This document shows positions 10,728 to 34,343 of a DNA stretch of 64,000 nucleotides, in pieces. The position numbers and the translations under genes are program-made. The notes beneath the pieces are model-generated. The model was not told where the DNA came from, did not search any database, and saw nothing but the letters and a program-made list of their open reading frames with translations. The stretch's first letter is position 1; each line of letters starts with the position of its first letter. The DNA is from Ranitomeya imitator (Eukaryota): contig NC_091291.1 in NCBI RefSeq assembly GCF_032444005.1, positions 112,468,001-112,532,000 on the forward strand, written 5' to 3'.

Positions 10728-11546
10728 GTTATGATCTGGTGATTCAGAACCACAATGGGCCTAGTGGTTAAGAGCACACAAAGTGACCTGACAGTTACCA
10801 ATAACAAGGACGAGCTCTGAGACGTGGGAACTCTGCTGACCGTAATCCCTAATCCTATCATACCACACTAGAGGTAGCCGTGGAGCGCTCCTATCCAAGG
10901 CCTAGGCGCCTCGAGCACAGCCTGAGAAACTAGCTAGCCCTAAGAGAGGAAAATAAGCCTACCTTGCCTCAGAGAAATTCCCCAAAGGAAAAGGCAGCCC
11001 CCCACATATAATGACTGTGAGTTGAGATGAAAATACAAACACAGAGATGAAATAGATTTTAGCAAAGTGAGGCCCGACTGACTGAACAGACCGAAGATAG
11101 GAAAGATAGCTTTGCGGTCAACACAAAACCCTACAAACAACCACGCAGAGGGCGCAAAAAGACCCTCCGCACCGACTAACGATACGGAGGTGCTCCCTCT
11201 GCGTCCCAGAGCTTCCAGCAAGCAAGAAAAACCAATATCGCAAGCTGGACAGAAAATATAGCAAACAAAAGTAACACCAGCAAAACTTAGCTTATGCAGG
11301 TTAGACAGGCCACAGGAACGATCCAGGAGAGAGCAAGACCAACACTGGAACATTGACTGGAGGCAATGAGCAAAGCACTAGGTAGACTTAAATAGAGCAG
11401 CACCTAACGACTTCACCTCATCACCTGAGGAAGGAAACTTAGAAGCCGCAGTACCACTCACATCCACCAACGGAAGCTCATAGACAGAACCAGCCGAAGT
11501 ACCACTCGTGACCACAGGAGGGAGCTTGACCACGGAATTCACAACA
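10728..11546 (-). mobile_element. Solitary LTR of a related Gypsy subfamily, inverted, fused to the 3' LTR
   Basis: Reverse complement begins TGTTGTGAATTCCGTGG and ends ..CATAAC; shares blocks with the 5044 LTR (gagctcgtcct, gtcaatgttccagtgttgg, ggggctgcct.ttcctttggg). Confidence 0.88.
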
Positions 11547-11769
11547 CACCTGGCCCCTAAGTAGGGGCCAGGTAACTGCAGCATCCTCCACACACCTTGG
11601 AAACGCCAGTCAAAAAGGTGACAGCAGTGGGCGGGATGGGGGTGACACCATGATACTCTGACTCCTCACCTTCCCTTTAAAGCGGTTGTCCAGGACTTTA
11701 ACGGCGCTAAGAAATAATTATGCGGCGCCCCCAGCATCAGCAAATCTCCAGGGAACATGATTCGGGTCG

Positions 11770-12017
11770 GATTTTACTGATTTAAGGGCACAAAAATTCT
11801 AAGTTTGAAAACTGTAAAATTTAAATTTTTGCTAAATTTCTGGTTTGTTTCAGAAATAAACGCAAGTCATATCGAATAAATTTTACCACTATCATAAAGT
11901 ATGATATGTCACAAAAAAACAAACAGTCAGTATCAGCGGGATCCATTGAGGCTCCAGAGCTGTAACCACAAAGGGACAGTGGTCAGAAATGTAAAAATTG
12001 CCTTGGTCAATAAGGGG
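11770..12017. mobile_element. 3' fragment of a piggyBac-like (TTAA) non-autonomous element
   Basis: Ends ttggtcaataagggg followed by TTAA. Confidence 0.55.
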
Positions 12018-12755
12018 TTAACATTGATAGCCCGTCTTTTCCACTGGTTACACCCGCCATCTTGGCTGTTAGCTCCTCCCTGGTGTCAGCTGGAGCTGCT
12101 CAGTCACCGACACCCAGAGCACAGCGGCGTCACCGGAGTCCAAGGTCGGGTACAGCACTTCTGTCGGCGGAGCTGTGCAGCGCAGGGACTGACAAGTTCC
12201 ATCCAACAACTTAAAAGGTGGAGGTGCTGGTGTCGCACCCCCACAGATCACACACAGATGACATACTCCAATGAGAGACCATCAATGTCACGGTCATGGA
12301 CAACCCCTTTAAAAAGAGAACAGTTCAAGGGATGAAAGCTCATGCCCACCATGGTAGCGCCTCCAACACTGCTGCAGCAGATCAGCACCACATCGTCGGC
12401 CGTAGTGATGACATCTGTACACAAGAGACCCGTGAGGACGAGGACCACGAGCCGCTCGTGTTTATATCGTGGCAGTTGTGAAAATGCAAGAACGGGGATG
12501 TTTCAATTCACTGCTTGCAAGCAGCTACAAAGAGCCGTTACTTACGCTCCGCCAGCTGGGCCCACCTTTATGACACAGTTCTAAAAAGTGGGAAAGGCTA
12601 AGTGGGAGGGGCGGAGTCTGCTAGTGGTTTAATTAATATAAGCCATAAACTTGATGTAAATTATCTATTGCTGAGGTCACGGCCCATTACCGAGAAACCA
12701 ACGACTCAGTATCGCAAAAACATAGAAAATATAAAATTTTATTATACAAAAATGA

Positions 12756-12887
12756 CTAAATACAGATATAAAAGAGAAAACCATGGAGCACATAGTGGTG
12801 CTTGCGTCTCCAACGGAGCAGATGCGACGTGGAGTCTCCCAACTTCCGAAAGTAGTAGTCGAGTTTGTCACTGAGCTTCTCCCGCAG
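12756..12887 (-). pseudogene. nup160: nup160 last exon remnant
   Basis: tttcctttacag|LREKLSDKLDYYFRKLGDSTSHLLRWRR.. vs recalled human LSQKILDKLEDYQQKVDKATRDLLYRRTL; TAG at 12756-12758, AATAAA at 12738-12743. Confidence 0.75.
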
Positions 12888-13457
12888 CTGTAAAGGAAAT
12901 GGAGGAAGACATTAATGGTGCAGACATGGTCTGAGCCCGGCTGCCATGGCTCTAATCCCTCACAGTTTCTGAGTGTGGCATTACGTCATCATGAATGACA
13001 TCACCATTAGTCACGACGGCCATGTGATGTGAATTCTCACCATAAACGGTCAGGGAGTCCAGGCGCATGCGGAGGACAAGCTTTGGCTTTGCCGGTTCTC
13101 ATCCTTAGGCTTCAGACCCATTTGCGATTAAAAAAAAAAGGTCTGATTTCCGGACAGAAAAAAGAAAGAAACATATGCGAGGTCAATGCGATTTTTTTAT
13201 CGCAACATCCGTATGCAATGCGATTTGAACATGAGCTTTTACATACAGCAGTTCTCTGTCATTTACACATCATTTTAATACTAAATATTTATCAAAACAC
13301 ATGTATGTATGTATATATATAATATATATATATATATAATAGATAGATAGAATAGCCGGCAATTCCTGTGCGCCTACAGTAAAATCACACTGACAGGTTA
13401 CAATACAATAGATAGAATAGAAATATACACATAGTATAGGTGTGTGTGTATATATAT

Positions 13458-13895
13458 TAGTGCCCTGCGATAGTATTCGGCCCCCTGGAACGTTTCAACC
13501 TTTTCCCACATTTCGTGCTTCAAATATAAAGATACCAAATGTAAATTTTTTGTGAAGAATCAACAACAAGTTGAACACAATTGTGAAGTTGAACGAAATT
13601 TATTGGTTATTAAAAAATTTTCTGGAAATTCAATAACTGAAAAGTGGGGCGTGAAATATTATTCGGCCCCTTTACTTTCAGTGCAGCAAACTCACTCCAG
13701 AAGGTCATTGTGGATCTCTGAATGATCCAATGTTGTCCTAAATGCCTAATGATGATACATATAATCCACCTGTGTGTAATCAAGTCTCCGTATAAAGGCA
13801 CCTGCTCTGTGATAGTCTCAGGGTTCTGTTTGAAGCACAGAAAGCATCATGAAGACCAAGGAACACAACAGGCAGGTCCGTGATACTGTTGTGTG
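13458..13895 (+). mobile_element. Tc1-like transposon 5' fragment
   Basis: After a TA run: tagtgccctgcgatagtattcggccccc; ends in transposase start MKTKEHNRQVRDTVV. Confidence 0.8.
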
Positions 13896-13909
13896 TATTA
13901 ATCCTTTAA

Positions 13910-14266
13910 GGCTGCTTTCACACTAGCATCGTACAACGCACGTTGCAATGCGTCGTTTTGGAGAAAAAACGCATCCTGCAAAGTTGCCCGCAGGATGCGT
14001 TTTTTTCTCCAAAGGCTTGCATTAGCGACACATTGCCACACGTCGCATCCGTCATGCGACGGATCCGTCGGCACAAAAAACGTTACATGTAAAAAAAAAT
14101 TGTGCGTCGTGTGCACCATTTCCGACCGCGCATGCACGGCCGGAACTCTGCCCCCTCCTCCCCGAACATTACATTGGGGCAGCGGATGCGTTGAAAAACT
14201 GCATCCGCTGCCCTAGTGCTTCTATTTCACAGTATGCGTCGGTATGACGCTAGTGTGAAAGTAGCC
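13910..14266. mobile_element. PIF/Harbinger-type MITE
   Basis: TIR ggctgctttcacactagc / gctagtgtgaaagtagcc, TAA on both sides. Confidence 0.85.
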
Positions 14267-14946
14267 TAATTTAACACCTACAGCTCCAAAATTTTACACA
14301 CACACACACTACTAACATTATTAGTGAGGGGCATATAAAAATCTAACGGATATGCAATGGTTCACTGTATGTAAATCACGTCTCATATCCTGTCAGCTTC
14401 TGTAATGATTATGCAGAAGCCGGCAATTGAATTACCAGCTTTTCTGCTATCTATGAAATAGTAAGATATATATATATATATATACACACACACATACATA
14501 TTCTATGTATATAGATATCTATTCTATTCTAACCTGTCAGTGTGATTTTCCTGTACACCGCACATGAATTACCAGCTTTTCAAAGGACACCGGTGCGTAA
14601 AATAATCGGAGAGCACTCGCATGGTGCGTTTTTTTTAATCAGTCCTATTTAGGATGAGAAAAATCTCGCTAATGAGATGTCCCCTATTGAATAACATTGG
14701 TCCGAGTGCAATCTGATTTTTTATTGGATTGCACTCGTCTGTGTCTCGCACAAATGGGTATGAGGCCTTACATGTCAATCATCCCAGCTGCACCAGGCAG
14801 CACAGACTTAGAATGGGGTCTCCTGTGGCATCCGGTAAGTATGGCGGCAGAATGTGCAGTGACTCATGGAGGACAAGTCCTATAATTGGAGCATATACCA
14901 AGTCCTCCGAACACCACACACGTGTGACGGTGACTGCGGCTCTTAC

Positions 14947-15048
14947 CTCGCGGTTTAGCCGACTGTTATTTTCTTCCAGCGCTTGCAGAAGGTGATCGAT
15001 GGAGGAATACAGCAGCCAAACCAAAGGAGACACGGCGGACAGAGGCCA
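14947..15048 (-). pseudogene. nup160: nup160 penultimate exon remnant
   Basis: ctcaccag|WPLSAVSPLVWLLYSSIDHLLQALEENNSRLNRE|gtaaga vs recalled FPLSATAPMVWLPYSSIDQLLQALGENS; 102 nt, phase 0/0. Confidence 0.9.
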
Positions 15049-15623
15049 CTGGTGAGAAGTATACTGGATCGCAAAGAATAAAAATTTATAACAGAAGTTT
15101 CTAGATGGAGAAGTTTATCAATCTGGATCATGCAAAATAAATTGCTCTGGTTATGTGGGGTAAATAAAAGGGACTTTCTTCTCTCACTCACTGATGGGAA
15201 CATGTCAAGTGTTCAGAGTTTCAGACACATCGGCCGGAGCCCATCCACTTACAGACATGGCATTGCACGACCAGCTCAGCCATTTCCACAGCTCCGACCA
15301 GCGCATAGATAGAGTTCGTTCACGGCTTGGACCCCGATATAAGTTTAAGGGTTGAAGCTACGGATATGGGTGTGCTGCGCCGGTTCTGTGACTCTTAATG
15401 AAGAGTTTGGTAAATTGCGTATTATAGCGTACTGCAATAAATGGCGCTGTAATAATAAATGGCGCTATAATAAATGGCATACACTTGTGCTGACTGACAG
15501 ATTTTACCGTGAACGCCTGAGACGAGAATCCACCCCAGGACAGGAAAACCCCTGTAACTATACATTTCTTTCCCACTGCCCCCGACGCCGGCTGCACAAT
15601 CCAGGAGTATTCGGGCCGTATAA

Positions 15624-15943
15624 GGCTACTTTCACACTAACGTCGGACTAGATTCCGACGCTAGCGTTGTTAGCGCCGCACAATGGGTGCAGCGGATGCA
15701 TTTCTCCGGCACATCCGCTGCCCCATTGTGAGGTTACATTTAACGTTTTTGCTACCGGCGGTCCGCCACAACACCGCGCAACCGTCGCAAGACGGTTGCG
15801 ACGTGTGTCAATACATCGCAATGCGTCGCTAATGTTACTCTATGGGGTAAAAACGCATTCTGCAAACAACTTTGCAGGATGCGTTTTTTCCCCTAAACGA
15901 CGCATTGCGACGTATTCCAAAAAACGCCAGCGTGAAAGTAGCC
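15624..15943. mobile_element. PIF/Harbinger-type MITE inserted in a nup160 pseudo-exon
   Basis: TIR ggctactttcac / gtgaaagtagcc; absent from the inverted duplicate near 3945, which shows the empty site. Confidence 0.9.
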
Positions 15944-16678
15944 TTAGCTGCAGACAGGTCAGACACGCCAGGTACGCATTCACTTGCTTCTGAAGACCTT
16001 TAAGGGTTCGGACCTCTCTGCTGAGATGCATCCTGTACACAAACATCATGGTGCCGGCTGAGGAAGGAGACAAGGACATTCAACAGAGACGGAAATCAAA
16101 AGAGGAATGGAGAGATCACTAGAGGGGACAATCTCAAATACGACGGATAACTACCTGACCCCCCAGTGTGCCCCCCCCCCCTCTGTGTGCAAAGACAAAT
16201 GGAGGGCTTCACATAACATCCAGGAGGAATGTACAGTACTAAAATTAGCGGCTCCAGAATTTGTAATACAATCTCTTACTAGAGATAAGATCAGAAGAGT
16301 AAAACCCCCGATACCTTTCGGATAGTTGTGCCGATGAATATGGAAAGCATATTATGGGTCAGGAGATCCGCGGCTCGAGCCCGAGCTTCAATGATGCTCA
16401 CAACCTGAGGGAGACACAGCAGTGATATACAGCTGGCTCGGTAAGAAGACGATGGCTCCGGCCGGGCGACGCTCACCTCACTGTAAATTCACGTAAGGGA
16501 ATTCCACAAGTTCATGGAGCTGTGAACGTTCACACAGGATGATGACCAGCTGCCGAAGGCAATCCAGCTGTCTGCAAAAAGGGGGGACGGGGGATGAGGA
16601 ACCAACCAGCCCCTAATATTCCAGCACTCCTGACCGCAGCGTGTAACTGGGCACCTACTCTGGCTAAGTGATGGTTAA

Positions 16679-17799
16679 AGGGAACCTGTCACGTCGTTTT
16701 GGCCCTGTAAGGCTTCTTTCACACTTCCGTCTTCCAAATCTGCACAGGATCCGTCAAGAAGTTGAAATGACGGATCTTGTGCAGATTGTGGAAAACGTGT
16801 GCACTGGGCCCGTTTTCCTGACAGACCCGTCGAAGCTATGTGTACATGCTGTGTATGCGTCTTCGCAGCAGTTTTCCGCTGCGAAAACGCATACACAACA
16901 CAACCCAGGTGAAAAAAAAAGAAAATAATGAAAAAAAAAGATCGCAATATTCTTACCTTCCAGCGTTTCGTGCAACGTTACCAATGCTCCCGGCAGCTAG
17001 CGTTGCCAGTAATGCATTGCGGCAATAACCCAGAAGACCTAGCAGTAATGCTGTAGATAAGCCTCCGATCAAACCTGAAATAGAAGAAAAACAAGATTAT
17101 ACTCACCCGGGAGCGGGGGGCTGTCCCGTTCGATGGGCATCGCGGTCCAGAGCCTCCCATCTTCATACGATGACGTCCTCTTCCTTACTTCGTGTCGCGT
17201 CTCCTGCGCAGGCATACTTATCTGCCCTGTTGAGGGCACAGCAAAGTACTGCAGGCGCAGGGCCTCTCTGACTTTTCCAGGCACCTGCGCACTGCTGTAA
17301 TTTACTGTGCACTGCACTATGGATCCGCTGGGAATAAAGGCAACAGATTACTACAGGCAGAATACGGATCCCCTGGGAATAAACGCAACAGATTACTACA
17401 AGCAGAATATGGATCCGCTGGGAATAAAGGTAACAGATTACTACAGGCAGAATACGGATCCGCTGGGAATAAACGCAACAGATTACTCTCTGACTTTTCC
17501 AGGCACCTGCGCACTGCTGTAATATACTGTGCCCTCAACAGGGCAGATAAGTACGCCTGCGCAGGAGCCGCGACACAAAGCAAGGAGGAGGACGTCATCG
17601 CATGAAGATGGGAGGCGCCGGACCTGGACCTGAGACACCCATCGGAACCGACCGCCCCAGGGTGAGTATAATAAAACTTGTTTTTCTTCTATTTCAGGTT
17701 GGACAGGGGGCTTATCTGCAGCATTATAGAATACTGTATATAAGCCCTGAAAGGCGGTGGCCGCAGCTTACAGGGGCAAACCGACGTGACAGGTTCACT
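16679..17799. mobile_element. T2/Kolobok-type palindromic MITE with nested fragments and a minisatellite insert
   Basis: TTAA-agggaacctgtcacgtcg ... cgacgtgacaggttcact-TTAA; long internal inverted arms. Confidence 0.8.
17311..17485 (+). repeat. ~4 units of the 45-bp minisatellite
   Basis: Same unit as 19457-19857; flanked by a 47-bp direct duplication. Confidence 0.9.
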
Positions 17800-19456: not shown

Positions 19457-19857
19457 GAGAATACAGGCAACAGCTCACTACAGGCAGAATACGGATCCGC
19501 TGGGAATACAGGCAACAGCTCACTACAGGCAGAATACGGATCTGCTGGGAATACAGGCAACAGATTACTACAGGCAGAATACGGATCCGCTGGGAATAAA
19601 GGCAACAGGTTACTACAGGCAGAATACGGATCCGCTGGGAATAAAGGCAACAGATTATTACAGGCAGAATACGGATCCGCTGGGAATAAACGCAACAGAT
19701 TATTACAGGCACAATGCGGATCCGCTGGGAATAAACGCAACAGGTTACTACAGGCAGAATGCGGATCCGCTGGGAATAAACGCAACAGGTTACTACAGGC
19801 AGAATACGGATCCGCTGGGAATAAACGCAACAGGTTACTACAGGCAGAATACGGATC
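19457..19857 (+). repeat. 45-bp minisatellite, part 1 of an interrupted array
   Basis: ~9 units; resumes at 25715 after the LTR element. Confidence 0.95.
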
Positions 19858-20393
19858 TGTTAAATATTAATTATTCTTATTTTTATTCTGTACTGAGCAC
19901 ATTGCTTATTGCTGACACGATCAAAAGCTATTTCTGTGTATGTAGCTCAGAGTATAAGTTAACTCCATATACAGAAGACACGTGATCAGTGTTGAACATA
20001 TATAAACGTCTCTTAGGAGGGTGTGGGGGCTTTTTGTCACGTGGGACGGTCACCTCCCTTCCTTCACCATCATTCTCTATGGACATGGGACAAGACACGA
20101 GAAACAACAGCTGTTAGCTACTCCATGCCATGATGACTTCAGACTTCACACAGACAGATGACTTTTACCATTCAGGACCTTGGGAAAGATGAGTAACAAG
20201 ACAAGCGCTGATATTTACACATGGACACTCTGTTCGTAACTATTTCATCTACTTTTATGTTCTTTCTGCAATGGTGGATAATTCAATAAACCACTATTCT
20301 TTTATCAGAATATCATGACATTTTTCTTTTAAGAACAACGCACCTTGTTAAGTCTTGATTAGATATTTTTGCGCAATAACGATTTTTAACATT

Positions 20394-20410
20394 TGGCCAA
20401 GCCAGCCAGG
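20394..20410 (+). promoter_or_regulatory. Degenerate primer-binding site, tRNA-Arg(ACG)-like
   Basis: TGGCCAAGCCAGCCAGG vs TGGCGAGCCAGCCAGGAG, the complement of the recalled tRNA-Arg(ACG) 3' end; starts 2 nt after the LTR. Confidence 0.7.
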
Positions 20411-20669
20411 TTTGATTTTTTGTGCTATTTTTGCGTGAATTTCCTTCTTCTTGCACACGGGGGAAGACAGAACAGTTCCGCTAGATTGTGCAAGTATTCA
20501 GGAATTCCACTTCAAGTCACAAAGATCTCACAAGAACCTACGAATTACAGAGACTCTAACAGGTGTCAGACGGATTAACAAGCAGTAGCTGAAGACAGCC
20601 GTGCTGAAGTCCGGAGCCCAGCGTTGTAAAATTAAAGGGACTACAAGCTGAGATTTCAAGGTAAGACAA

Positions 20670-22013
20670 ATGGATTTGATTAATTCATATGCTAAATCAA
20701 GTCAGATAGAATTTGTAAGTTTATACAGATCTAGCTTAGAAATATTTTGGCATTGTTTATTTGCAGAATGCAGAATAGCAAATTTGAAATTGGATTCTAA
20801 GCTAATGTCTAGGAAAAAAGAAAAAGAGCAACTTAAAAATATTTTACATATGGTTTATGTATTTAACGAGTTTGTTACAGAGAAGTCCAAAAAAGACAGT
20901 GTAGAAAGAATTTCTAAGGAAATGGAAATTAATGATGTTCCCAAGATTGACTGTAATGGGAAGAGTGAGGAAGATGTTACACACGTATCTGTGATGACGA
21001 TGACCACCCAAAGTGACATTGACTTTGTGACACAAGATGAAAAACAAGATGGAGGAAGCGTAGGAGAAACTGACAAAGATGATCTACGAGGGACAGATGT
21101 ACCATTGCCCTTAAAAATAGACGACTCAGAGGCCCAACTCCAACCTAAATCTAGGAAAATCTTGCTAAAATTATGCAAAATTATTCCTGCATATGATGAC
21201 AAAATCCATGTGTGCAGAAATTCAGAGATATTTGAAAGTTTTGCTGATAAGTTTGATTTGACTAATCAGGAGAAAAATAATTTGTTTAAAATTTGGATTC
21301 CGGGAAATTTTATGAGAAGATTTTCATTTAAAATGCAGAAGGAGGAGTATGAAAATATGACTGATGTAGAAAGATTAAGAATTTTGATTTTCTGTGGATT
21401 AAAAGAAAATTATCCAGATCTTGATATTCTTCTAAAATTGAAGATTGGCCAGAAAGAGTGTACTTTTACATTCATGTCCATTTTTGAAAGGACTTATAAA
21501 TTGGTCTGTACGAATTTGAATCAACAATCCATGATAAATTGTTTTGTAAACAAATTTAAATTCTTAAATCCTGTATCTCGTATAATTGCTTCACAAAAAG
21601 ATTCTTTATACGAATGTGCCAAATCCCTAGATTTTTCTAGAAAACATGAGAATCTTGAAAGGAAAACAAATTTTACTAAGTTTTTGAAACCAGGCAGAAT
21701 TCAATCTTATCAAAAGCCAAAATCAAAATCTTCAAATCTGATCCAAAATCAAATCTATGAAGTACGAAGAAAATTACATATTTGCTACAAACCCTATGAA
21801 ACGATTCAGGAATCTATTAAAGAAATTCCTTTGAAAGGGTTAAAATCTGAAGGCTCAGATCTGTCGGAAATTGACAGATGGAAGCAGGTGTGCAACAGCA
21901 TAGGGAGCGAGCTGAACACTCCGTTTTCACAGCTCATAAGACTAAAGATGGCAGTTTTAGGTTTTCAACAAATTATCAACAGAGAGGTAAATTTTGGGAT
22001 AGGGATTAGCTAA
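20670..22013 (+). CDS. 447-aa ORF in gag position, no recognisable CCHC knuckle
   Basis: Uninterrupted ATG-to-TAA ORF just downstream of the PBS; acidic linker, probably helical central region, basic C-terminal part; gag assignment is positional only. Confidence 0.65.
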   Translation: MDLINSYAKSSQIEFVSLYRSSLEIFWHCLFAECRIANLKLDSKLMSRKKEKEQLKNILHMVYVFNEFVTEKSKKDSVERISKEMEINDVPKIDCNGKSEEDVTHVSVMTMTTQSDIDFVTQDEKQDGGSVGETDKDDLRGTDVPLPLKIDDSEAQLQPKSRKILLKLCKIIPAYDDKIHVCRNSEIFESFADKFDLTNQEKNNLFKIWIPGNFMRRFSFKMQKEEYENMTDVERLRILIFCGLKENYPDLDILLKLKIGQKECTFTFMSIFERTYKLVCTNLNQQSMINCFVNKFKFLNPVSRIIASQKDSLYECAKSLDFSRKHENLERKTNFTKFLKPGRIQSYQKPKSKSSNLIQNQIYEVRRKLHICYKPYETIQESIKEIPLKGLKSEGSDLSEIDRWKQVCNSIGSELNTPFSQLIRLKMAVLGFQQIINREVNFGIGIS

Positions 22014-25000
22014 AAATGTAATTACTGGTATATTATATGATGAGTTATACAATGTATTATTTATTAATGTAATTATTTTATTTCAATATAATTCTGCTGT
22101 TACATATATTAATATAATATACAGTAAATACTGTAGCATATTTGTATAAGTAGAGATTATATTAACTGCATTTTTATATATATAGTGAAATAATTAAAAT
22201 TTACTCCAGTAAAAATATTTAGAATTACAATTAAATACATTTATTAAATATATACATATGTATAAGATATCTAAATTATTTTGTTTTGAAATAAATATGA
22301 AATTAACCTTTATCTTTCATTTTCCCTTAGAATTTTACTTTCAAAGCGAGGATTGAACAAAAAAATACCTGTTTCATGAATTTATGTCTTATTCACACAG
22401 GAAGTTATATTAACTGCATGATTTTTATATATTTAACACTTATACTATTTATTTTTATCTAATTACCTAAAAATGTGTGTACTACATGTTTTTCTGTAAC
22501 ATTATGTTTTCTCCCACTGCATGGTGTGACTTATGTGAGTTAAAGATATCATATAGCCTTGTTTTTAGTTTTAGGAATTTTCCTCAGCTTTACTTGCAAA
22601 TGGATTCCTGAACCAAAATAGCGTTGGAACATTCAACTCGGATTTCTTGTAAATGGGTCCAGTCTTTTCTATAGGTTAAAACATACTGTTAGATAATATT
22701 TGGGGAATATTCAAAGGAATATTAGACTACTAAATTTAATAGATTACAATGCGCATTGATTGATAATTAGGATACAATATTTTGGGTTAATATACATGTT
22801 TTTTATTCTTTGTATGTGAAATGTATTGTGAACGTCTATGTGAGTCACAGTTTGAGTGACAGGTGGCAGCTGCTGAGTGAACTTGACATATGAGAGTGAA
22901 AGAACCTAATGCTAGGTGTGTAATGCAAGAGTGACCAGAGCGTGGTATGTGGAATGTGGAATGTGTATGCACAGTTTGACAGAGGCCTCATGATTCATGG
23001 TATGTTGCGAAAAAAGAAAAAAAAAAACAACCTTGTGTTAATGAGAAAATAAGATTCAGTTAAATTATTAGAATATTAAAATATATTTCAATATTATTTA
23101 TTCAACATATATGCAACATATTTTTCTTTTAATAATTATTTTTTTTTTATTTAGTTAATAGTGAATAAGTACAATAATACATCAATATGATTTTTCTAGA
23201 AAATCTACATTTAGAATAATTTTTCCAAATTATAATTTTATGATATTCAGTGTTTTTTATGGTTACATAGATGAGTACACATCTTCAAACAAATATAAGT
23301 CATAAAGCTAATATGACAGTTATAAAAACAATTATTTTTCACTTGGGTTTTTACAAATTAATTTTTTCATGAAATAATATTTTTTGATATTAAGGGGGAA
23401 ATGTGTTTTTGATCCTGATCACATCATCAAATTTCATCAATACCTCTTCTTCACACATTTTAATAAAGAAGAAATATGAATAAGGTATTATTAGGTACAA
23501 TAACATTAAATATTATAAAAGTCATTTTTTTCCTCTAATGAAGGGTATTCTATGCAAAGCTGCATAATTTCAATATTTTGGTAATCCAAGGTTATGACAA
23601 CATCTACAAAAATATTAAGGGAATGTGTTACTGAGACATAACCTCAGCATTTGTCATCAACATATAAAGGCCTTATTCTTATTTTTATTTTTTATTCTCA
23701 TTTTTATTTTTCATTTTTCATTTTTATTTTTTATCTCAAGAAAAAAATCTATATTTCATAAAGAAATGTCTAATACAAGAATATTGCTTGATCAAATATA
23801 GTGATCATATGGTTTCATTATATAAGAAATGTTTCAATCCTGAGTTACATACAACAATTCTTTAATTCATTCATTCATTCATATATATATATATTCTTAT
23901 TTTGGTTCATGGCTATACATACTTACATATTATTGGTCTACTGAACATAAATTAATAAAGTTTTAATAATAAATATCAGCACTTGTTACATAAAAGACAC
24001 ACTGACATCTATGGGTTCAAAAAGAAATTACACCTATGACATAAAAATGTCCAATCACATGAAGAATATAGTTAATATTATTATTATTATTATTATTTAA
24101 TTTTTCCAAATATAAATTTCATATTAATATTCTGATAAAATAATTATATGAATATTACTGATTGCTATGGTACGCTGTGATATTATAAGTTAGGGAAATT
24201 ATCAGATTTGGTATAGAATAGGGAATGAAGACTTCAATCAAGATACCGGAGATACGTTAATAAAGACATTTCATTTTTCTAAATTCAATTGATTCTTAAA
24301 AGTTGCAAGAAGAAAAGTCGTTATCCAGAAGTTCCACGAGGTAACAATGCTATGATTTCTGAGTAATAATAGACTGTGTCAAATGCAATTCATGTCACTA
24401 CTGACAACAACTACAGTATCCATCACTGACAACTGAGTACAGTATCAAAGATGAACGGTGTTATCACGTTCCAGTGGTTTCCTATCACCTATAAGACTTC
24501 CATGAAAGCTGGAGAACACTCAGGTAATTGTCAGGACGCTACAACCCTGACATGTGTCCTGTGCACTAAGGACTGGTTATGGTGCTATGTTTGGCAAGGA
24601 AGAGTCAATGTAACCCTTGCTGTGCTGACCAAAGACGTCACACCTGTTCCAAGACCAGTGCGGACGATATGAGGATTCCAGATGATTTCCAAGGCGAGCC
24701 AATGTAAGTCCAGGTCTATAAAGGTGACACTGCACAGATATTAAAGCTGCATTTCATCTATGAACTTTGTTTTCTTATCAACATTTAAATTTATGGACTT
24801 TGATTGACACATGACACACAGTCTATACATATCTACATGCTATCATCTATTTCAAAAGACTTATATTAAAGATTGTTTAAAAGAACCAAGAAGACATCAA
24901 TATGAAGACCAGATGACATCAGATGACATCACACCTGAGATGCTTCAAGTAGATATAGGGAAGTATAATATATATTTTATATGAATATTAGTCACGGCTT

Positions 25001-25714
25001 ACCATAACATGAATTACCATAACATGAATTTACATATCATTATATTATTGAGAACATATAACAATATTATTATTGATATTATTATTTATTACATCATTTT
25101 GCCAAAGAAGAAAATAGATCTTATTAATATTTTTAATTTGAGGGTTCCAATCAATATCTGTCACCCTCAAAAGGGGGAATTGTTAAATATTAATTATTCT
25201 TATTTTTATTCTGTACTGAGCACATTGCTTATTGCTGACACGAGCAAAAGCTATTTCTGTGTATGTAGCTCAGAGTATAAGTTAACTCCATATACAGAAG
25301 ACACGTGATCAGTGTTGAACATATATAAACGTCTCTTAGGAGGGTGTGGGGGCTTTTTGTCACGTGGGACGGTCACCTCCCTTCCTTCACCATCATTCTC
25401 TATGGACATGGGACAAGACACGAGAAACAACAGCTGTTAGCTACTCCATGCCATGATGACTTCAGACTTCACACAGACAGATGACTTTTACCATTCAGGA
25501 CCTTGGGAAAGATGAGTAACAAGACAAGCGCTGATATTTACACATGGACGCTCTGTTCGTAACTATTTCATCTACTTTTATGTTCTTTCTGCAATGGTGG
25601 ATAATTCAATAAACCACTATTCTTTTATCAGAATATCATGACATTTTTCTTTTAAGAACAACGCACCTGGTTAAGTCTTGATTAGATATTTTTGGGCAAT
25701 AACGATTTTTAACA

Positions 25715-27035
25715 GGATCCGCTGGGAATAAACACAACAGGTTACTACAGGCAGAATACGGATCCACTGGGAATAAACGCAACAGGTTACTACAGGCAGA
25801 ATACGGATCCGCTGGGAATAAACGCAACAGGTTACTACAGGCAGAATACGGATCCGCTGGGAATAAACGCAACAGGTTACTACAGGCAGAATACGGATCC
25901 GCTGGGAATAAAGGCAACAGATTATTACAGGCAGAATACGGATCCGCTGGGAATGAATGCAACAGGTTACTACAGGCAGAATACGGATACACTGGGAATA
26001 AACGCAACAGGTTACTACAGGCAGAATACGGATCCGCTGGGAATAAACGCAACAGGTTACTACAGGCAGAATACGGATCCGCTGGGAATAAAGGCAACAG
26101 ATTATTACAGGCAGAATACGGATCCGCTGGGAATGAATGCAACAGGTTACTACAGGCAGAATACGGATACACTGGGAATAAACGCAACAGGTTACTACAG
26201 GCATAAAAGGGATCAGCTGGGAATAAAAGCAACAGATTACTACAGGCAGAATACGGATACGCTGGGAATAAAGGCAACAGCTTACTACAGGCAGAATAGG
26301 GATCTGCTGGGAATAAACGAAACAGGTTACTACAGGCATAAAAGGGATCCGCTGGGAATAAACGCAACAGATTACTACAGGCAGAATACGGATACGCTGG
26401 GAATAAAGGCAACAGCTCACTACAGACAAAATACGGATACGCTGAGAATAAACGCAACAGGTTACTACAGGCAGAATACGGATCCGCTGGGAATAAACGC
26501 AACAGATTACTACAGGCAGAATACGGATCCGCTGGGAATAAAGGCAACAACTTACTACAGGCAGAATACGGATCCGCTGGGAATAAAGGCAACAGATTAC
26601 TGCAGGCAGAATACGGATCCGCTGGGAATAAATGCAACAGATTACTACAGGCAGAATACGGATTTGCTAGGAATAATCGCAACAGATTACTACAGGCAGA
26701 ATACGGATACGCTGGGAATAAACGCAACAGCTTACTACAGGTAGAATAGGGATCCACTGGAAATAAAGGCAACAGCTCACTACAGGCAGAATACAGATCC
26801 GCTGGGAATAAATGCAACAGATTACTACAGGCAGAATACGGATCCGCTGGGAATAAAGGCAACAGCTCACTACAGGCAGAATACAGATCCGCTGGGAATA
26901 AATGCAACAGATTACTACAGGGAGAATACGGATACGCTGGGAATAAAGTCAACAGGTTACTACAAGCAGAATACGGATCCGCTGGGAATAAACGCAACAT
27001 ATTACTACAAGCAGAATACGGATCCGCTGGGAATA
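25715..27035 (+). repeat. 45-bp minisatellite, part 2 (~29 units)
   Basis: Unit caggcagaatacggatccgctgggaataaa(c/g)gcaacagattacta. Confidence 0.95.
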
Positions 27036-27143
27036 AATGAAAAAGAAAAAATAATCTCCAGCATGGATCTTCTAAAAAGTCAATTTATTGAAAACACTTT
27101 AAAATGCAAACATTTGCAAAAAAGAGATGGGGGTCCCAGGTGG

Positions 27144-27188
27144 TCAACGCCGACGCGTTTCGACCATCAGGTCTTAGTCATGGCATGA
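27144..27188 (-). ncRNA. Minimal type I hammerhead ribozyme (copy 1)
   Basis: Exact reverse complement of 34299-34343. Confidence 0.7.
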
Positions 27189-27512
27189 AAATGGGACCAC
27201 ATATTAACATTTTATACAACACAGAACACTAAAACAACAAGTGCTTAGATTAAAATTCAGGTGGGCAATCAGAACATTCATTAGATTAACCCCCTGTGAA
27301 CCGCAAAAGAGAAAGACATGTCTATGGAAAAAGAACCACAATGGTGTATCAAAAAATTACATTAGCCGGAGTAATAGAACCAATTCACAGTGTGTACAAT
27401 ATTAAATATCACCTTCTTATGGAGAGAAGAAAGAAAAAAAAAAAAAAAAAAAACACGGAAAAAAAAAAAAATAAAATTGGATTATATGAAATAAATATAT
27501 GAAATTATTACA

Positions 27513-30017
27513 TTAATCTAACTGCAAAATGAGGTCAAGACGTTTGTTCAGCCCTAAGGGCACCCTTGACTGTAGAGAAAATATCCAAAAGGATTCACGA
27601 TTTAATATCTTACGTCTATGATCACCGCCTCTAGGGGGTTTATGCACTTTTTCAATAGCAGTCACTTTAATCATGCTGGTATTACCTGCATGGATTGTTT
27701 TGCAGTGGTGAGAGACTGCAGAAATGTTATGTGATGTATTATTAAGTGCAGATTCTGAGATATGCTTACAAAACCTTCTTTTTAGAGGGCCCACTGTGCA
27801 GCCCACATATTGCAGTTTACATAAGTCGCATTCTATCAAGTAAATGACACCTTCTGAGTTGCAATTCATGTGCGTTCGAATCGGATAAGTAATGCCTGTC
27901 ACACTAGAGGTGAAACTAGTAGTTTTTCTTACGAAATTACACGTTTTACACGGGTGGTGACCACATTTAAAAAAACCCTTATATGTTAACCAGGCACTAT
28001 TTCCTGCAGTCAATTTACTATGGAGATAAAGACTCGGAGATAGGATGTCACGTAAGGAAGGTGCTTTTTTGGCAAGATATCGTATGTGAGTACGATCTAA
28101 AATATGTGCTAGCTTCACATCACTATATAAAATAGGAACATATTTTTTCACAATTTGAATTATTTCTGCATACTGCGGACTATAAACTGTGGAAAAATTT
28201 ATCGTACTCAGAGAGTGAGAGGCAGGCTCTGTGTGTTTATTTTCATTAAGCCTTTTTCTTTTAATTTTTTTCATTTTATTATTATTCTTGTTGGGGTTCC
28301 TAGAAAGAGACCCTGAATCCTCATTATCACTCCATAATAAAGACTTCCTATCAATGTCTTTTGTCACTGATTTTGCTCTGTGTAGCATCCAATTAGGATA
28401 ACCGCGATCTTTAAGTCTGAAAACTGCAGACTCAGTTTCCTGTGTGAATTGTGCAGCTGAACTACAATTTCTTTTAAGCCTGATAAATTCACCCACTGGT
28501 ATATTCTTAATGACATGTTTTGGGTGACAAGAGTGTGCCTCCAAAATTGAGTTGCTGTCAGTAGATTTTCTATAAGGGGAAACAGCAACTAAATTAGTAT
28601 TTTCATTTACTGATAAGGAAATATCCAAATAATTGATAGAAGTCTTGGAGGTATTAAAAGTAAAGGAGAGATTAAAATCGGTATTATTCACGTATTTTAT
28701 GAAATCCGCAATCAGCATATCTTCCCCCTTCCAAATTATAATCAAATCATCGATATAGCGACCAAAAAATACAATGTTATTAGAAAAGGGATTATTCTCA
28801 TTGAAAATATATTTCTCTTCCCAAACCGCTACTGTAATATTGGCTAATGAAGGGGAACATTTCCCTCCCATACTAACGCCCTTTTTTTGAATAAAAAACA
28901 ACCTGTCAAATGAAAAATAATTATGGGTCAACAGAAAAGAAACTGAATCTATAATAAAAAATTGAATCTCCTGTTTGTATGTGCTGTACTTATTGAGAAA
29001 ATATGACAGGCTGGTTAGAATGATATTATGTGGTATGGAAGGATATAAACCAACCACATCACAGGTGACCCATGTATAATGTGAAGACCACAAAAAGCCA
29101 TCTAATGCGGCAATGACTGCTTTGGTATCTTTAATGTAACCCGGTAAATTGATCACTAAGGGTTGTAGAAAATGATCCACCCATTCTCCCAAATTTTCTG
29201 AGAGTGACCCTATACCAGAGATGATGGCTCTAAACGGAGGAGGAAAAACATTTTTATGAATCTTAGGGAACGCATGATAAATAGGGATAACTGGATGTTT
29301 GATATTTAAATAATCATATATTTTTTGTGTAATAGCACCTGTGGATAGGCCATCTATTAATAATTTCTCTAAATGTATCTGAAATTCTTTTGTGGGATCA
29401 TATGGAATTTGGGTGTAAGTAGAACAATCACTAAGAATGCGAAGATTTTCCACGTAATATAAACCAGCATTCAAAATTACCACCCCCCCTCCTTTGTCAG
29501 CCTGTCTGATCAATAAATCCTCATTATGGCGTAAATTACTTATAGCCTGTCTTTCCAAAACAGTCAGATTATCATGCACAAAATCTATGTTACTATCCAG
29601 TTTCATTAAATCCCTCTCTACCAGTTCTTGGAAGGTGTCCAAGACAGTGGGTCTGGATTGTACTGGATAGAAAAGAGCATTAGGTGTACCAAAATCCTTA
29701 TTCATATTACAGTCTTTCTCAAGTGAATCGGATTGCAAATCTCGTAAAATAGAATAATCCAAAAGTTCCTGAAAGGAAAAATTACCATGTGGAGAAACAG
29801 CATTGGTATATCCAGGAGGTTGCACAGTATCAGAAAAAGCAGAATCTTGTTCAAAGTGACATTTCAAGGTTAAGTTTCTGGCAAATTTGTTTACATCCAA
29901 TAAAGTCCTAAATACGTCAAATTTTTTTATTGGACAAAAACCAAGTCCTTTTCCCAAAAGAGAAATTTCAGCTTCAGACAAAATATAGCTGGAAAGATTC
30001 CAGACTGGAAGTGTCAA
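27513..30017 (-). CDS. Penelope-like reverse transcriptase + GIY-YIG endonuclease, 834 aa, intact (TTG start in the ORF track)
   Basis: NLSSYILSEAEISLLGKGL, ADKGGGVV, DVVGLYPSI, GVSMGGKCSPSLANI, GRYIDD, Cys linker CGHHPCKTC, GVIYLIECDLCKLQYVG..R..KH. Confidence 0.95.
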   Translation of the reverse strand: MTLPVWNLSSYILSEAEISLLGKGLGFCPIKKFDVFRTLLDVNKFARNLTLKCHFEQDSAFSDTVQPPGYTNAVSPHGNFSFQELLDYSILRDLQSDSLEKDCNMNKDFGTPNALFYPVQSRPTVLDTFQELVERDLMKLDSNIDFVHDNLTVLERQAISNLRHNEDLLIRQADKGGGVVILNAGLYYVENLRILSDCSTYTQIPYDPTKEFQIHLEKLLIDGLSTGAITQKIYDYLNIKHPVIPIYHAFPKIHKNVFPPPFRAIISGIGSLSENLGEWVDHFLQPLVINLPGYIKDTKAVIAALDGFLWSSHYTWVTCDVVGLYPSIPHNIILTSLSYFLNKYSTYKQEIQFFIIDSVSFLLTHNYFSFDRLFFIQKKGVSMGGKCSPSLANITVAVWEEKYIFNENNPFSNNIVFFGRYIDDLIIIWKGEDMLIADFIKYVNNTDFNLSFTFNTSKTSINYLDISLSVNENTNLVAVSPYRKSTDSNSILEAHSCHPKHVIKNIPVGEFIRLKRNCSSAAQFTQETESAVFRLKDRGYPNWMLHRAKSVTKDIDRKSLLWSDNEDSGSLSRNPNKNNNKMKKIKRKRLNENKHTEPASHSLSTINFSTVYSPQYAEIIQIVKKYVPILYSDVKLAHILDRTHIRYLAKKAPSLRDILSPSLYLHSKLTAGNSAWLTYKGFFKCGHHPCKTCNFVRKTTSFTSSVTGITYPIRTHMNCNSEGVIYLIECDLCKLQYVGCTVGPLKRRFCKHISESALNNTSHNISAVSHHCKTIHAGNTSMIKVTAIEKVHKPPRGGDHRRKILNRESFWIFSLQSRVPLGLNKRLDLILQLD

Positions 30018-30643
30018 TACTTCCTCTGATTCCTGAGCGGGTAAGTTCTTACGTTTGTGCTTCCTCCCCGCCCTCCTCCGGCGTTTTTTGCTTTGCTGAT
30101 GGCACCTGATCTCTCATTAAATGTCTCATTATGCCTGTTGGATCCAAACGATACATCCGAAAAATCTTCTGAAGTATTATGATTTGAGCTGGATGAACCC
30201 ATCGACTCATGAGAAGCAGTGAAGCTGACCCTTCGCCCTTTATAATTGGAATCAAAGAAATCATGTTGCGGGCGTCTATTCCTTCTATTCCAGGTACGGG
30301 AGATTTTCCAGGTGTAAACTTGGTTCAATTCATAATCCCGTTTATCTCTCTGGAATTTGTCATGTTTAATATCAGCAACATGTTCCTCTAGTTTCAGTAA
30401 GTTTTTTTCCATTCTCTGGTTTAAAATGTTGAAATCCTCAACATTGTTATATTTATTCAGGGATGTCTGTATTTTTGTAATGTCATCTTTTATATGATTA
30501 ATCTCAATTTCTGGTTTTGATTGGTGAGCTGACTTATTTTCTTCCCATTTTTTCCTTTTTCCCTATTTTTGTATTTTGTGGACCAAGTCTTGCTTCCTCC
30601 CCTATTTAATTTTTTCTATACTTACCATTGGTTATGAACTGAT

Positions 30644-31498
30644 TTGCCTGCTATGGATAATCACAGTGCAATATCTATGGATAGTGATAGAAAACGCATG
30701 AATAGGTTTGCGTCTATCTTTAATCAAACTAATGAAGATGTGTCTCGGAATAATGGGGTTTCCTCAGGCGAGTCTATTGAGGACCTTTTTAAAACACTGG
30801 AGAACCGTAAAAGTAAAGAGACGAGATTATGGTGGGACATGACCTCTCTTAAATCATATTTGTCTAAAAAACTTATACCAAGGGGTTTAAGAATCAATAA
30901 GAAACCCACCTTTTCTTATTCAGATGAGTTTAAAACGGAATGGGAATCAATACTTTCACAATGTTCATATAAGTTGATGGAACTAATCACCAAACATGAA
31001 GAAATTGAGATTAATCATATAAAAGATGACATTACAAAAATACAGACATCCCTGAATAAATATAACAATGTTGAGGATTTCAACATTTTAAACCAGAGAA
31101 TGGAAAAAAACTTACTGAAACTAGAGGAACATGTTGCTGATATTAAACATGACAAATTCCAGAGAGATAAACGGGATTATGAATTGAACCAAGTTTACAC
31201 CTGGAAAATCTCCCGTACCTGGAATAGAAGGAATAGACGCCCGCAACATGATTTCTTTGATTCCAATTATAAAGGGCGAAGGGTCAGCTTCACTGCTTCT
31301 CATGAGTCGATGGGTTCATCCAGCTCAAATCATAATACTTCAGAAGATTTTTCGGATGTATCGTTTGGATCCAACAGGCATAATGAGACATTTAATGAGA
31401 GATCAGGTGCCATCAGCAAAGCAAAAAACGCCGGAGGAGGGCGGGGAGGAAGCACAAACGTAAGAACTTACCCGCTCAGGAATCAGAGGAAGTATTGA
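30644..31498 (+). CDS. Upstream ORF of the Penelope-like element (284 aa from TTG; ATGs at 30653 and 30677)
   Basis: Open frame with LWWD..SL..YL....IPRGLRI motif, coiled-coil-like middle and basic/Ser-rich tail; its TGA overlaps the TTG of the RT ORF; 3' half identical in the inverted copy (30014-30412). Confidence 0.8.
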   Translation: MPAMDNHSAISMDSDRKRMNRFASIFNQTNEDVSRNNGVSSGESIEDLFKTLENRKSKETRLWWDMTSLKSYLSKKLIPRGLRINKKPTFSYSDEFKTEWESILSQCSYKLMELITKHEEIEINHIKDDITKIQTSLNKYNNVEDFNILNQRMEKNLLKLEEHVADIKHDKFQRDKRDYELNQVYTWKISRTWNRRNRRPQHDFFDSNYKGRRVSFTASHESMGSSSSNHNTSEDFSDVSFGSNRHNETFNERSGAISKAKNAGGGRGGSTNVRTYPLRNQRKY

Positions 31499-34001
31499 CA
31501 CTTCCAGTCTGGAATCTTTCCAGCTATATTTTGTCTGAAGCTGAAATTTCTCTTTTGGGAAAAGGACTTGGTTTTTGTCCAATAAAAAAATTTGACGTAT
31601 TTAGGACTTTATTGGATGTAAACAAATTTGCCAGAAACTTAACCTTGAAATGTCACTTTGAACAAGATTCTGCTTTTTCTGATACTGTGCAACCTCCTGG
31701 ATATACCAATGCTGTTTCTCCACATGGTAATTTTTCCTTTCAGGAACTTTTGGATTATTCTATTTTACGAGATTTGCAATCCGATTCACTTGAGAAAGAC
31801 TGTAATATGAATAAGGATTTTGGTACACCTAATGCTCTTTTCTATCCAGTACAATCCAGACCCACTGTCTTGGACACCTTCCAAGAACTGGTAGAGAGGG
31901 ATTTAATGAAACTGGATAGTAACATAGATTTTGTGCATGATAATCTGACTGTTTTGGAAAGACAGGCTATAAGTAATTTACGCCATAATGAGGATTTATT
32001 GATCAGACAGGCTGACAAAGGAGGGGGGGTGGTAATTTTGAATGCTGGTTTATATTACGTGGAAAATCTTCGCATTCTTAGTGATTGTTCTACTTACACC
32101 CAAATTCCATATGATCCCACAAAAGAATTTCAGATACATTTAGAGAAATTATTAATAGATGGCCTATCCACAGGTGCTATTACACAAAAAATATATGATT
32201 ATTTAAATATCAAACATCCAGTTATCCCTATTTATCATGCGTTCCCTAAGATTCATAAAAATGTTTTTCCTCCTCCGTTTAGAGCCATCATCTCTGGTAT
32301 AGGGTCACTCTCAGAAAATTTGGGAGAATGGGTGGATCATTTTCTACAACCCTTAGTGATCAATTTACCGGGTTACATTAAAGATACCAAAGCAGTCATT
32401 GCCGCATTAGATGGCTTTTTGTGGTCTTCACATTATACATGGGTCACCTGTGATGTGGTTGGTTTATATCCTTCCATACCACATAATATCATTCTAACCA
32501 GCCTGTCATATTTTCTCAATAAGTACAGCACATACAAACAGGAGATTCAATTTTTTATTATAGATTCAGTTTCTTTTCTGTTGACCCATAATTATTTTTC
32601 ATTTGACAGGTTGTTTTTTATTCAAAAAAAAGGGCGTTAGTATGGGAGGGAAATGTTCCCCTTCATTAGCCAATATTACAGTAGCGGTTTGGGAAGAGAA
32701 ATATATTTTCAATGAGAATAATCCCTTTTCTAATAACATTGTATTTTTTGGTCGCTATATCGATGATTTGATTATAATTTGGAAGGGGGAAGATATGCTG
32801 ATTGCGGATTTCATAAAATACGTGAATAATACCGATTTTAATCTCTCCTTTACTTTTAATACCTCCAAGACTTCTATCAATTATTTGGATATTTCCTTAT
32901 CAGTAAATGAAAATACTAATTTAGTTGCTGTTTCCCCTTATAGAAAATCTACTGACAGCAACTCAATTTTGGAGGCACACTCTTGTCACCCAAAACATGT
33001 CATTAAGAATATACCAGTGGGTGAATTTATCAGGCTTAAAAGAAATTGTAGTTCAGCTGCACAATTCACACAGGAAACTGAGTCTGCAGTTTTCAGACTT
33101 AAAGATCGCGGTTATCCTAATTGGATGCTACACAGAGCAAAATCAGTGACAAAAGACATTGATAGGAAGTCTTTATTATGGAGTGATAATGAGGATTCAG
33201 GGTCTCTTTCTAGGAACCCCAACAAGAATAATAATAAAATGAAAAAAAATTAAAAGAAAAAGGCTTAATGAAAATAAACACACAGAGCCTGCCTCTCACT
33301 CTCTGAGTACGATAAATTTTTCCACAGTTTATAGTCCGCAGTATGCAGAAATAATTCAAATTGTGAAAAAATATGTTCCTATTTTATATAGTGATGTGAA
33401 GCTAGCACATATTTTAGATCGTACTCACATACGATATCTTGCCAAAAAAGCACCTTCCTTACGTGACATCCTATCTCCGAGTCTTTATCTCCATAGTAAA
33501 TTGACTGCAGGAAATAGTGCCTGGTTAACATATAAGGGTTTTTTTAAATGTGGTCACCACCCGTGTAAAACGTGTAATTTCGTAAGAAAAACTACTAGTT
33601 TCACCTCTAGTGTGACAGGCATTACTTATCCGATTCGAACGCACATGAATTGCAACTCAGAAGGTGTCATTTACTTGATAGAATGCGACTTATGTAAACT
33701 GCAATATGTGGGCTGCACAGTGGGCCCTCTAAAAAGAAGGTTTTGTAAGCATATCTCAGAATCTGCACTTAATAATACATCACATAACATTTCTGCAGTC
33801 TCTCACCACTGCAAAACAATCCATGCAGGTAATACCAGCATGATTAAAGTGACTGCTATTGAAAAAGTGCATAAACCCCCTAGAGGCGGTGATCATAGAC
33901 GTAAGATATTAAATCGTGAATCCTTTTGGATATTTTCTCTACAGTCAAGGGTGCCCTTAGGGCTGAACAAACGTCTTGACCTCATTTTGCAGTTAGATTA
34001 A
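31495..34001 (+). pseudogene. Penelope-like RT-GIY-YIG ORF with two +1 frameshifts
   Basis: Otherwise matches 27513-30017; each break is an extra A in an A-run (8 vs 7) near 32631 and 33249, so these may be sequencing errors. Confidence 0.85.
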
Positions 34002-34298
34002 TGTAATAATTTCATATATTTATTTCATATAATCCAATTTTTTTTTTTTTTTTCTTTCTTCTCTCCATAAGAAGGTGATATTTAATATTGTACACACTGT
34101 GAATTGGTTCTATTACTCCGGCTAATGTAATTTTTTGATACACCATTGTGGTTCTTTTTCCATAGACATGTCTTTCTCTTTTGCGGTTCACAGGGGGTTA
34201 ATCTAATGAATGTTCTGATTGCCCACCTGAATTTTAATCTAAGCACTTGTTGTTTTAGTGTTCTGTGTTGTATAAAATGTTAATATGTGGTCCCATTT

Positions 34299-34343
34299 TC
34301 ATGCCATGACTAAGACCTGATGGTCGAAACGCGTCGGCGTTGA
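34299..34343 (+). ncRNA. Minimal type I hammerhead ribozyme (copy 2), predicted cleavage after C34335
   Basis: AUGCC | AUGACUA | A GACC-UGAU-GGUC | GAA | ACGCGU | C | GGCGU: helix I 5 bp, helix II 4 bp, palindromic helix III. Confidence 0.7.

Follow-up and report, generated by a model that had tools for sequence, protein, structure and literature searches.

How can a retroelement that encodes a Gag protein but neither Pol nor Env keep multiplying in a vertebrate genome? The question is raised by a long terminal repeat (LTR) element of 5857 bp, located at 19858..25714 on the plus strand of a 64,000-nucleotide stretch of the Ranitomeya imitator genome (positions 112,468,001 to 112,532,000 of contig NC_091291.1, assembly GCF_032444005.1; the whole stretch is hereafter called the window). 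An earlier note on this DNA had taken the element to be non-autonomous and mobilized in trans. We conclude, with a probability of roughly 75%, that it is a young member of an abundant family without pol and env, and that this family likely relies for its copying and insertion on the enzymes of a complete but rare gag-pol-env endogenous retrovirus (ERV) of the same genome. A borrowed Pol is the most likely means of movement for this multi-copy, pol- and env-less family, as the note had supposed; mobilization by the complete family, which we infer rather than observe, is likely in view of the cis-acting signals common to the two families and of one chimeric locus.

A high-copy family without pol or env

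The window element and its flanks have the following parts.

19853..19857, plus strand: left target-site duplication (TSD), GGATC, within a 45-bp tandem array
19858..20391, plus strand: 5' LTR, 534 bp, with TGTT...AACA ends
20394..20410, plus strand: primer-binding site (PBS) for tRNA-Arg(ACG), 4 + 11 matches flanking a bulge/mismatch
20411..20669, plus strand: leader, homologous to that of the complete gag-pol-env family
20657..20666, plus strand: splice donor CAAG/GTAAG immediately 5' of the gag ATG, its pattern matched in 64/75 copies
20661-22330, plus strand: predicted intron with GT..AG ends
20670..22013, plus strand: gag open reading frame (ORF), 447 aa, without a CCHC zinc knuckle
21138..21680, plus strand: capsid (CA) domain with two lobes (residues 157-337), as predicted by structure modeling
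21765..21797, plus strand: basic motif RRKLHICYKPY, residues 366-376, at the site of the CCHC knuckle region of relatives
22014..25168, plus strand: 3' region, 3.1 kb, A+T-rich, without a trace of pol or env and without homology to the complete family
25169..25179, plus strand: polypurine tract (PPT)
25181..25714, plus strand: 3' LTR, 534 bp, four differences from the 5' LTR
25715..25719, plus strand: right TSD, GGATC

The four differences between the LTRs are all mismatches, with no gaps, and the 5' LTR carries TATATAAA at 19999 and AATAAA at 20285. Each unit of the 45-bp array that served as the insertion target contains one GGATC; because the 45-bp spacing is preserved on both sides of the element, the second GGATC must have arisen by duplication. 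The PBS is imperfect: TGGC is followed by CA facing one tRNA base and then by 11 contiguous matches to tRNA-Arg(ACG), for which eight genes are present in the R. imitator genome. No other plus-strand stop-to-stop frame within the element exceeds 107 aa, and a tblastn search of it with the Pol and Env of the complete family returned no match with E < 2. The LTRs, TSD, PPT, TATA and poly(A) signals, the PBS with its 11 contiguous matches and the intact 447-aa ORF without CCHC are thus all in the places where the earlier note had put them, and it was right to see no pol or env ORF.

According to the frog dates of Wang and Han, a divergence of 0.003 corresponds to 0.68 million years (Myr). By this rate, the 4/534 LTR differences suggest an age of very roughly 1.7 Myr for the window copy. 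At all four positions (25244, 25550, 25669, and 25695), the 3' LTR has a G, and three of the four differences are transversions; this pattern may be due to chance or sequencing error.

A search of the 5.96-Gb R. imitator genome with the ORF gave 1423 candidates, the 94 scored ones being 88-100% identical, and exact PPT-LTR junctions of this gag-only family number at least 523. We fetched 40 copies chosen by protein and 39 chosen by a non-coding 3' stretch (L211, a part of L213, was left out of the latter set); four copies belong to both sets, which leaves 75 distinct ones. The structural plan is identical across all of them, and every copy retains LTRs, PBS, and PPT. No Pol or Env match was found between paired LTRs in any of the 75, such matches occurring only outside the LTR pairs. 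Among copies with two full LTRs, the 5-bp TSD is present in 30/32 and 27/28 (protein and 3'-stretch sets, respectively, with the four common copies counted in both), and 15/32 and 12/28 have LTR pairs without a single mismatch. In the 3'-stretch set, 24 copies have an open ORF, 6 have a broken one, and 1 has lost part of it to an internal deletion; in the remaining 8 of the 39 it lies partly or wholly beyond the fetched stretch, so the open fraction is 24/31 assessable copies. One otherwise ordinary copy (L188) has a 15-nt PBS that matches the tRNA perfectly, which is consistent with tRNA-Arg(ACG) as the primer. The window element is therefore a young member of a high-copy LTR family without pol or env, not a one-off deletion. 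With the ORF mostly intact and the junctions in the hundreds, we found neither a host gene, nor a mostly disrupted ORF, nor a unique deletion, the outcomes that the earlier note had named as contrary to its proposal.

Two other frames in the element were considered as genes and set aside. An ORF at 24451-24672 in the 3' region extends for 73 codons from its ATG in 37/75 copies and is shortened to 21 codons in 19; we rejected it as an essential gene because it is not kept in all copies and has no Pfam or Env match. The antisense frame 20855-21265 has no Pfam match and was taken as a shadow of gag.

A complete gag-pol-env family as candidate helper

The genome search for an autonomous partner that the earlier note had called for was productive: using knuckle-bearing relatives of the Gag as queries, we identified a complete gag-pol-env family with an arginine PBS and a related Gag and leader. 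Its members are ~9.7 kb long and encode a 558-aa CCHC-containing Gag, which ends at a TGA stop with CAA-TCA directly after it, and an in-frame Pol with protease, reverse transcriptase (RT), tether, RNase H, and integrase domains. CARYYA is a readthrough context, and the gag/pol TGA with CAA-TCA in copy L109 fits it. The junction pattern of this family occurs 23 times in the genome, versus 523 for the gag-only family. All three frames are open in 3/14 fetched copies; in five full copies the LTR pairs are 98.6-100% alike, and four of these five have a 5-bp TSD.

The two families have in common the imperfect arginine PBS, the TGT...AACA ends, the 5-bp TSD, and a splice donor immediately 5' of the gag ATG. 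Their leaders are homologous (alignment score 120 versus 53 +/- 7.6 for shuffles, maximum 80, n=300), and the leader is likely to be a packaging signal. Their Gags are 30% identical (E 6e-42). Snakehead retrovirus (SnRV) also uses an arginine primer site.

The imperfect PBS deserves a comment of its own. Copies L106, L109, L110, L114, and L115 of the complete family have it too, with a substitution or a short insertion. Both families resist correction of the PBS by the tRNA copy. Escape from silencing by tRNA fragments is a possible reason for keeping an imperfect PBS. The leader also contains a hairpin (20440-20470 in the window, and in L109), with the palindrome TGTACA as its loop in the complete family and TGCACA in the gag-only family; it is a possible dimer-initiation site, although the consensus fold, drawn from seven leader seq­uences of two groups, is too thin to count.

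The third frame of the complete family (L109:6339-8990) is an Env-like ORF of 884 aa that has an RSKR furin site and, toward its C terminus, a membrane span. It gave only weak matches to immunoglobulin domains (E up to 0.1) and none to PF00523 or any Env family of class I or paramyxovirus type; a protein atlas gave a single cluster without a name, at 0.81. Neither a dUTPase motif nor a Pfam dUTPase match was found in the complete family. In a tree of 22 Pol pieces, which includes no named SnRV sequence, the complete family groups with Pols from Xenopus, Rana, and unnamed sources with 100/100 support, apart from five class I-type rows. A scan of viral contigs for SnRV-like relatives found nothing. 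Among the other copies, one (L220, G000:C5:161594800-161604700) contains only env, with the splice donor preceding the gag ATG joined to the env acceptor, and looks like reverse-transcribed spliced RNA. Old, broken copies are mostly clustered at G000:C2 ~235-390 Mb, possibly a heterochromatic or piRNA-cluster-like trap.

A chimera of the two families

One locus, L117, joins sequences of both families. It starts with a gag-only-type LTR, 82% identical to the window LTR, followed by an exact 18-nt complement of the 3' end of tRNA-Arg(ACG), including CCA, and then by the leader, gag, and the first part of pol of the complete family, ~95% identical to complete-family copies. At its far end lies an inverted piece of the gag-only type, made up of LTR, PPT, and 3' region; the LTR part and the first LTR share 97.4% identity. 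The join has a 7-nt microhomology: the final 7 nt copied from the tRNA are a 7-mer that occurs once in the complete-family copy L109, exactly at this point. The join is unique (1/40 scored, one match genome-wide). Among the 30 nearest LTR relatives of L117, all five with internal sequence have an imperfect PBS and a knuckle-less gag; none of the 30 save L117, and none of the 75 fetched copies, has pol behind a gag-only-type LTR.

In retroviruses, an 18-nt copy of the primer forms the end of plus-strand strong-stop DNA. L117 may have arisen when such DNA of the gag-only family was mis-transferred onto minus-strand DNA of the complete family. A mis-transfer of this kind explains the join, and it requires both templates to be in one reverse-transcription complex; the chimera fits a link between the two families of the kind that joint reverse transcription would produce.

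The Gag protein and its knuckle-less clade

The 447-aa ORF, which the earlier note could not assign to any family, groups with frog Gags annotated as "posterior protein-like." A profile search identified 45 proteins at E <= 0.001; of the 20 that we looked up, 19 were frog proteins, several of them so named. NCBI homologs with this name come from Xenopus, Bufo, Spea, Hyperolius, and Discoglossus (E 6e-65 for Bufo and 2e-16 for X. tropicalis), and among named homologs, those of dendrobatid poison frogs are the closest. Many of the homologs have a CCHC knuckle (e.g., P0009, P0014, P0023, and P0029, as does the Gag of the candidate helper), and two continue into pol-like sequence; longer fused Gag-Pol relatives numbered 0 among 4975 candidates, which is weak evidence. 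Judging by these similarities, the ORF is a Gag of the frog "posterior protein-like" (Xpo-type) family, an assignment that follows database names. A Pfam scan of the ORF gave no genuine match, and PDB sequence searches gave no capsid match, its relatives matching only through their knuckles; the protein atlas suggested Retrotrans_gag at 0.87, a lead only.

The capsid-like nature of the protein, proposed in the earlier note, is supported by structure prediction. Residues 157-337, modeled with a 30-sequence alignment, reached a predicted local distance difference test score (pLDDT) of 88.8, whereas the full-length ORF, modeled with six sequences, reached only 35, the N- and C-terminal parts having no reliable model. 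Foldseek ranked the CA of murine leukemia virus (MLV) first for the residues 157-337 model, at E 0.005, with no match below 0.001. All 23 top rows of VIA-align were retroviral or retrotransposon capsids, including MLV CA (Z 8.4, 172 residues, root mean square deviation [rmsd] 5.1) and the C-lobe of Copia CA, with the maximum Z of 9.9 (81 residues, rmsd 2.2). Residues 157-337 are thus predicted to adopt a retroviral capsid fold; the Z scores are moderate, and the hit list is consistent.

The ratio of nonsynonymous to synonymous substitutions (dN/dS), pooled over pairs, was 0.38 (0.30-0.49) for the 36 open ORFs among 41 and 0.44 (0.32-0.64) for the 24 open ORFs of the set chosen by non-coding DNA; both values come from intact ORFs only, with broken copies excluded, and from pairwise counts with shared ancestry. 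The comparison across copies that the earlier note had proposed thus yielded ~0.4, which suggests roughly purifying selection on gag.

None of the 36 intact ORFs has a CCHC knuckle. In a capsid tree, the window Gag belongs to a clade of eight knuckle-less Gags with 100/100 support, from Leptodactylus, Dendropsophus, Engystomops, Anomaloglossus, Phyllobates, Dendrobates, and Ranitomeya. An RRxxHxxxKPY-like motif is present in 7/8 members and in 0/25 other rows, and five of the eight end in G[IL]GI[GS]. On this tree and alignment, the knuckle-less Gags form an old clade that spans hyloid frogs and has a conserved basic motif of a new kind, which is likely to be an RNA-binding substitute for the lost zinc knuckle. 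The clade roughly tracks host relationships; its branching among poison frogs agrees with the host tree.

Another knuckle-less Gag in the R. imitator genome (L122, G000:C10:14891000-14900950; 491 aa, with no other long ORF near) belongs to a different clade, with proteins from Leptodactylus, Mantella, Hyperolius, and Gastrophryne. Perhaps it represents another lineage of independent origin, either gag-only or domesticated.

Comparison with known elements

In plants, TR-GAG elements are LTR elements of Metaviridae origin that have only gag and depend on a partner. They resemble the R. imitator family in both respects, whereas the family described here is of vertebrate retrovirus origin. Other parallels come from frogs, where Xretpos encodes the "posterior protein" Xpo, which has a CCHC knuckle.

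Xretpos, lambda-olt 2-1, and 1A11 of Xenopus are pol-less LTR elements (PMC4585706). Like the gag-only family, they are frog LTR elements whose single ORF is gag-like; unlike them, the gag-only family has no CCHC knuckle, and it has at least 523 copies versus ~50 (PMC4585706). The Xenopus elements were judged to have probably lost mobility (PMC4585706), whereas numerous LTR pairs of the gag-only family are identical and a candidate helper is present. The zebrafish BHIKHARI elements (Bik-1 and Bik-2) and chicken ENS-1/ERNI are likewise non-autonomous, recently active gag-only ERVs in need of a Pol partner, with a helical N terminus, a capsid domain, and a C-terminal patch that is not a knuckle (PMC12067270). 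Bhikhari is a relative of lokiretroviruses, and its partner is described as unknown (PMC12067270); here a candidate partner is available, and the open ORF is kept in far more copies. With pol-less elements carrying gag-like genes in print for Xenopus and zebrafish, and a Gag of Xpo type, the earlier note's suggestion of an undescribed amphibian lineage is not supported.

Lokiretroviruses are defined by a PF00523-related Env (PMC7947760), whereas the 884-aa ORF of the complete family has no PF00523 match; the published Loki-Xtr and Loki-Rca proteins, judged by eye only, also look unlike this family. The complete family is similar to SnRV-like and class III-like frog ERVs in its in-frame gag-stop-pol arrangement, dual RNase H, 5-bp TSD, TGT...ACA ends, and length of ~9.7 kb (PMC4131045, PMC12193657, PMC8278194). 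It differs from XtERV-S, which has a serine primer and a dUTPase (PMC8278194), and from ERV-L, in that these have a dUTPase and a serine or leucine PBS, whereas here the PBS is for arginine and no dUTPase was found. With the terms searched, the accessible texts of PMC4131045, PMC12193657, PMC10435555, PMC3337140, 10.1101/2024.07.05.601823, and 10.1101/2023.11.06.565769 gave no description of the gag-only family.

Mobilization and its alternatives

Under the proposed explanation, transcription from the 5' LTR in the germline or early embryo would supply the RNA of the element. The Gag that it encodes would favor this RNA and co-assemble with helper Gag-Pol, produced by readthrough of the TGA stop, the basic motif probably taking over RNA binding from the lost zinc knuckle. 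The helper RT would prime from tRNA-Arg(ACG), and the helper integrase would create the 5-bp duplication. The gag-only family would then be a genomic parasite that outnumbers its helper ~20 to 1.

Several points weigh against this explanation. The LTRs and 3' ends of the two families are no more alike than shuffles; outside the leader, only the terminal TGT...AACA and the G-rich PPT are alike at these ends. There is just one chimera, L117, and it is older (its LTR is 82% identical to the window LTR and its helper part ~95% identical to helper copies); it has no normal left end and no TSD, and it could be complementary DNA captured by DNA repair. The estimate of purifying selection is affected by the choice of intact ORFs noted above. 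The genome searches score the best candidates only, so another helper could be missed. Of 15 sequencing runs with element sequence, none of those listed is recorded as RNA and 9 are RNA by guess only: contigs of four such runs span most of the element, which indicates presence and is no proof of expression, and one contig in one run skips 20661-22330, with GT..AG ends.

The alternative that survives best, although it is unlikely, is that the gag-only family owes its movement to some other autonomous element, perhaps unsampled (e.g., one with the same LTR, segregating in other individuals), the complete family being a cousin that occasionally shares a particle. The dissimilar LTRs and the single, older chimera are in its favor, and Chang et al. 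propose such a rare autonomous copy for Bhikhari. However, no such element with pol behind the LTR was seen among the 75 copies or, apart from L117, the 30 nearest LTR relatives of L117, and an RT search revealed open full-length Pol frames in only two families, the complete one and a lysine-primed one. Four relatives with 48-51% identity were inspected: three are broken into short frames and one has no long Pol frame. The lysine-primed family (L222-L225) is an abundant, intact gag-pol-env ERV family with a lysine PBS in 4/4 loci and a Pol 30% identical to that of the complete family; it was rejected as a helper. Four loci with a perfect arginine PBS (L215-L218) have no link to either the gag-only or the complete family.

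We consider it quite improbable that Gag is kept mainly for the benefit of the host, in an embryonic function like that of Bhikhari Gag or as a dominant-negative block of the helper, with the RNA packaged by helper Gag alone. The loss of the knuckle in all intact ORFs scanned and the rough agreement of the clade with the host tree would suit such a role, as would the reported developmental necessity of the zebrafish Bik-1 and Bik-2 Gags and the posterior-ventralizing activity of xretpos(L) (PMC4585706). On the other hand, purifying selection across hundreds of dispersed young copies would fit selection during replication better than host selection at one locus, and LTRs, PBS, and PPT are retained in all copies. 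The two roles of Gag are not mutually exclusive.

A recent internal deletion of a complete retrovirus, or a unique post-insertion deletion, could account for the leader, PBS type, and Gag kinship common to both families but is extremely unlikely, given at least 523 junctions with one plan; recent origin of one family from the other is refuted by the 30% identity of their Gags, their unrelated LTRs and 3.1-kb 3' regions, and a tree test rejecting the union of the window and helper Gags apart from the knuckle-less Gags of other frogs (approximately unbiased test, p-AU 3e-5).

Other features of the window

The window contains two further repeats. At 27036-34451 there is a 3479-bp near-perfect inverted repeat with RT-like ORFs at 27516-30113 (minus strand) and 31399-33998 (plus strand), which looks, from motifs only, like a Penelope-like element in palindromic arrangement. 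At 2402-17487, inverted repeats of 1542 bp (99.8% identical) flank a Gypsy-like LTR element (~5043-10729) with a 1212-aa ORF.

Implications

Capsid-only elements without pol (Xretpos, 1A11, and Bhikhari) are already known; what is new here is the candidate helper in the same genome, the chimera, the knuckle-less hyloid clade with its basic motif, and the copy number. In a literature search that did not extend to subscription journals, Repbase/Dfam, or bioRxiv supplements, we found no description of the gag-only family, the knuckle-less clade, the candidate helper, or the chimera; a library entry may exist. A broader scenario, possible but doubtful, is that a capsid-only satellite lineage has depended on one helper lineage throughout the hyloid frog radiation (tens of millions of years), with the knuckle replaced by the basic motif and mixed capsids formed with helper Gag-Pol. 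If true, vertebrate retroviruses would include a satellite and helper that have been paired since ancient times, and the movement of Xpo/Xretpos-type elements would be explained.

Known gag-only ERV families are embryonic markers and sometimes needed host factors, and the publications cited here call them immobile or their partner unknown. With a candidate partner that has open frames, common signals, and a chimera in the same genome, both the movement of such elements and their retention of Gag become testable. The knuckle-less clade, in turn, points to an unstudied mode of RNA binding by retroviral Gag.

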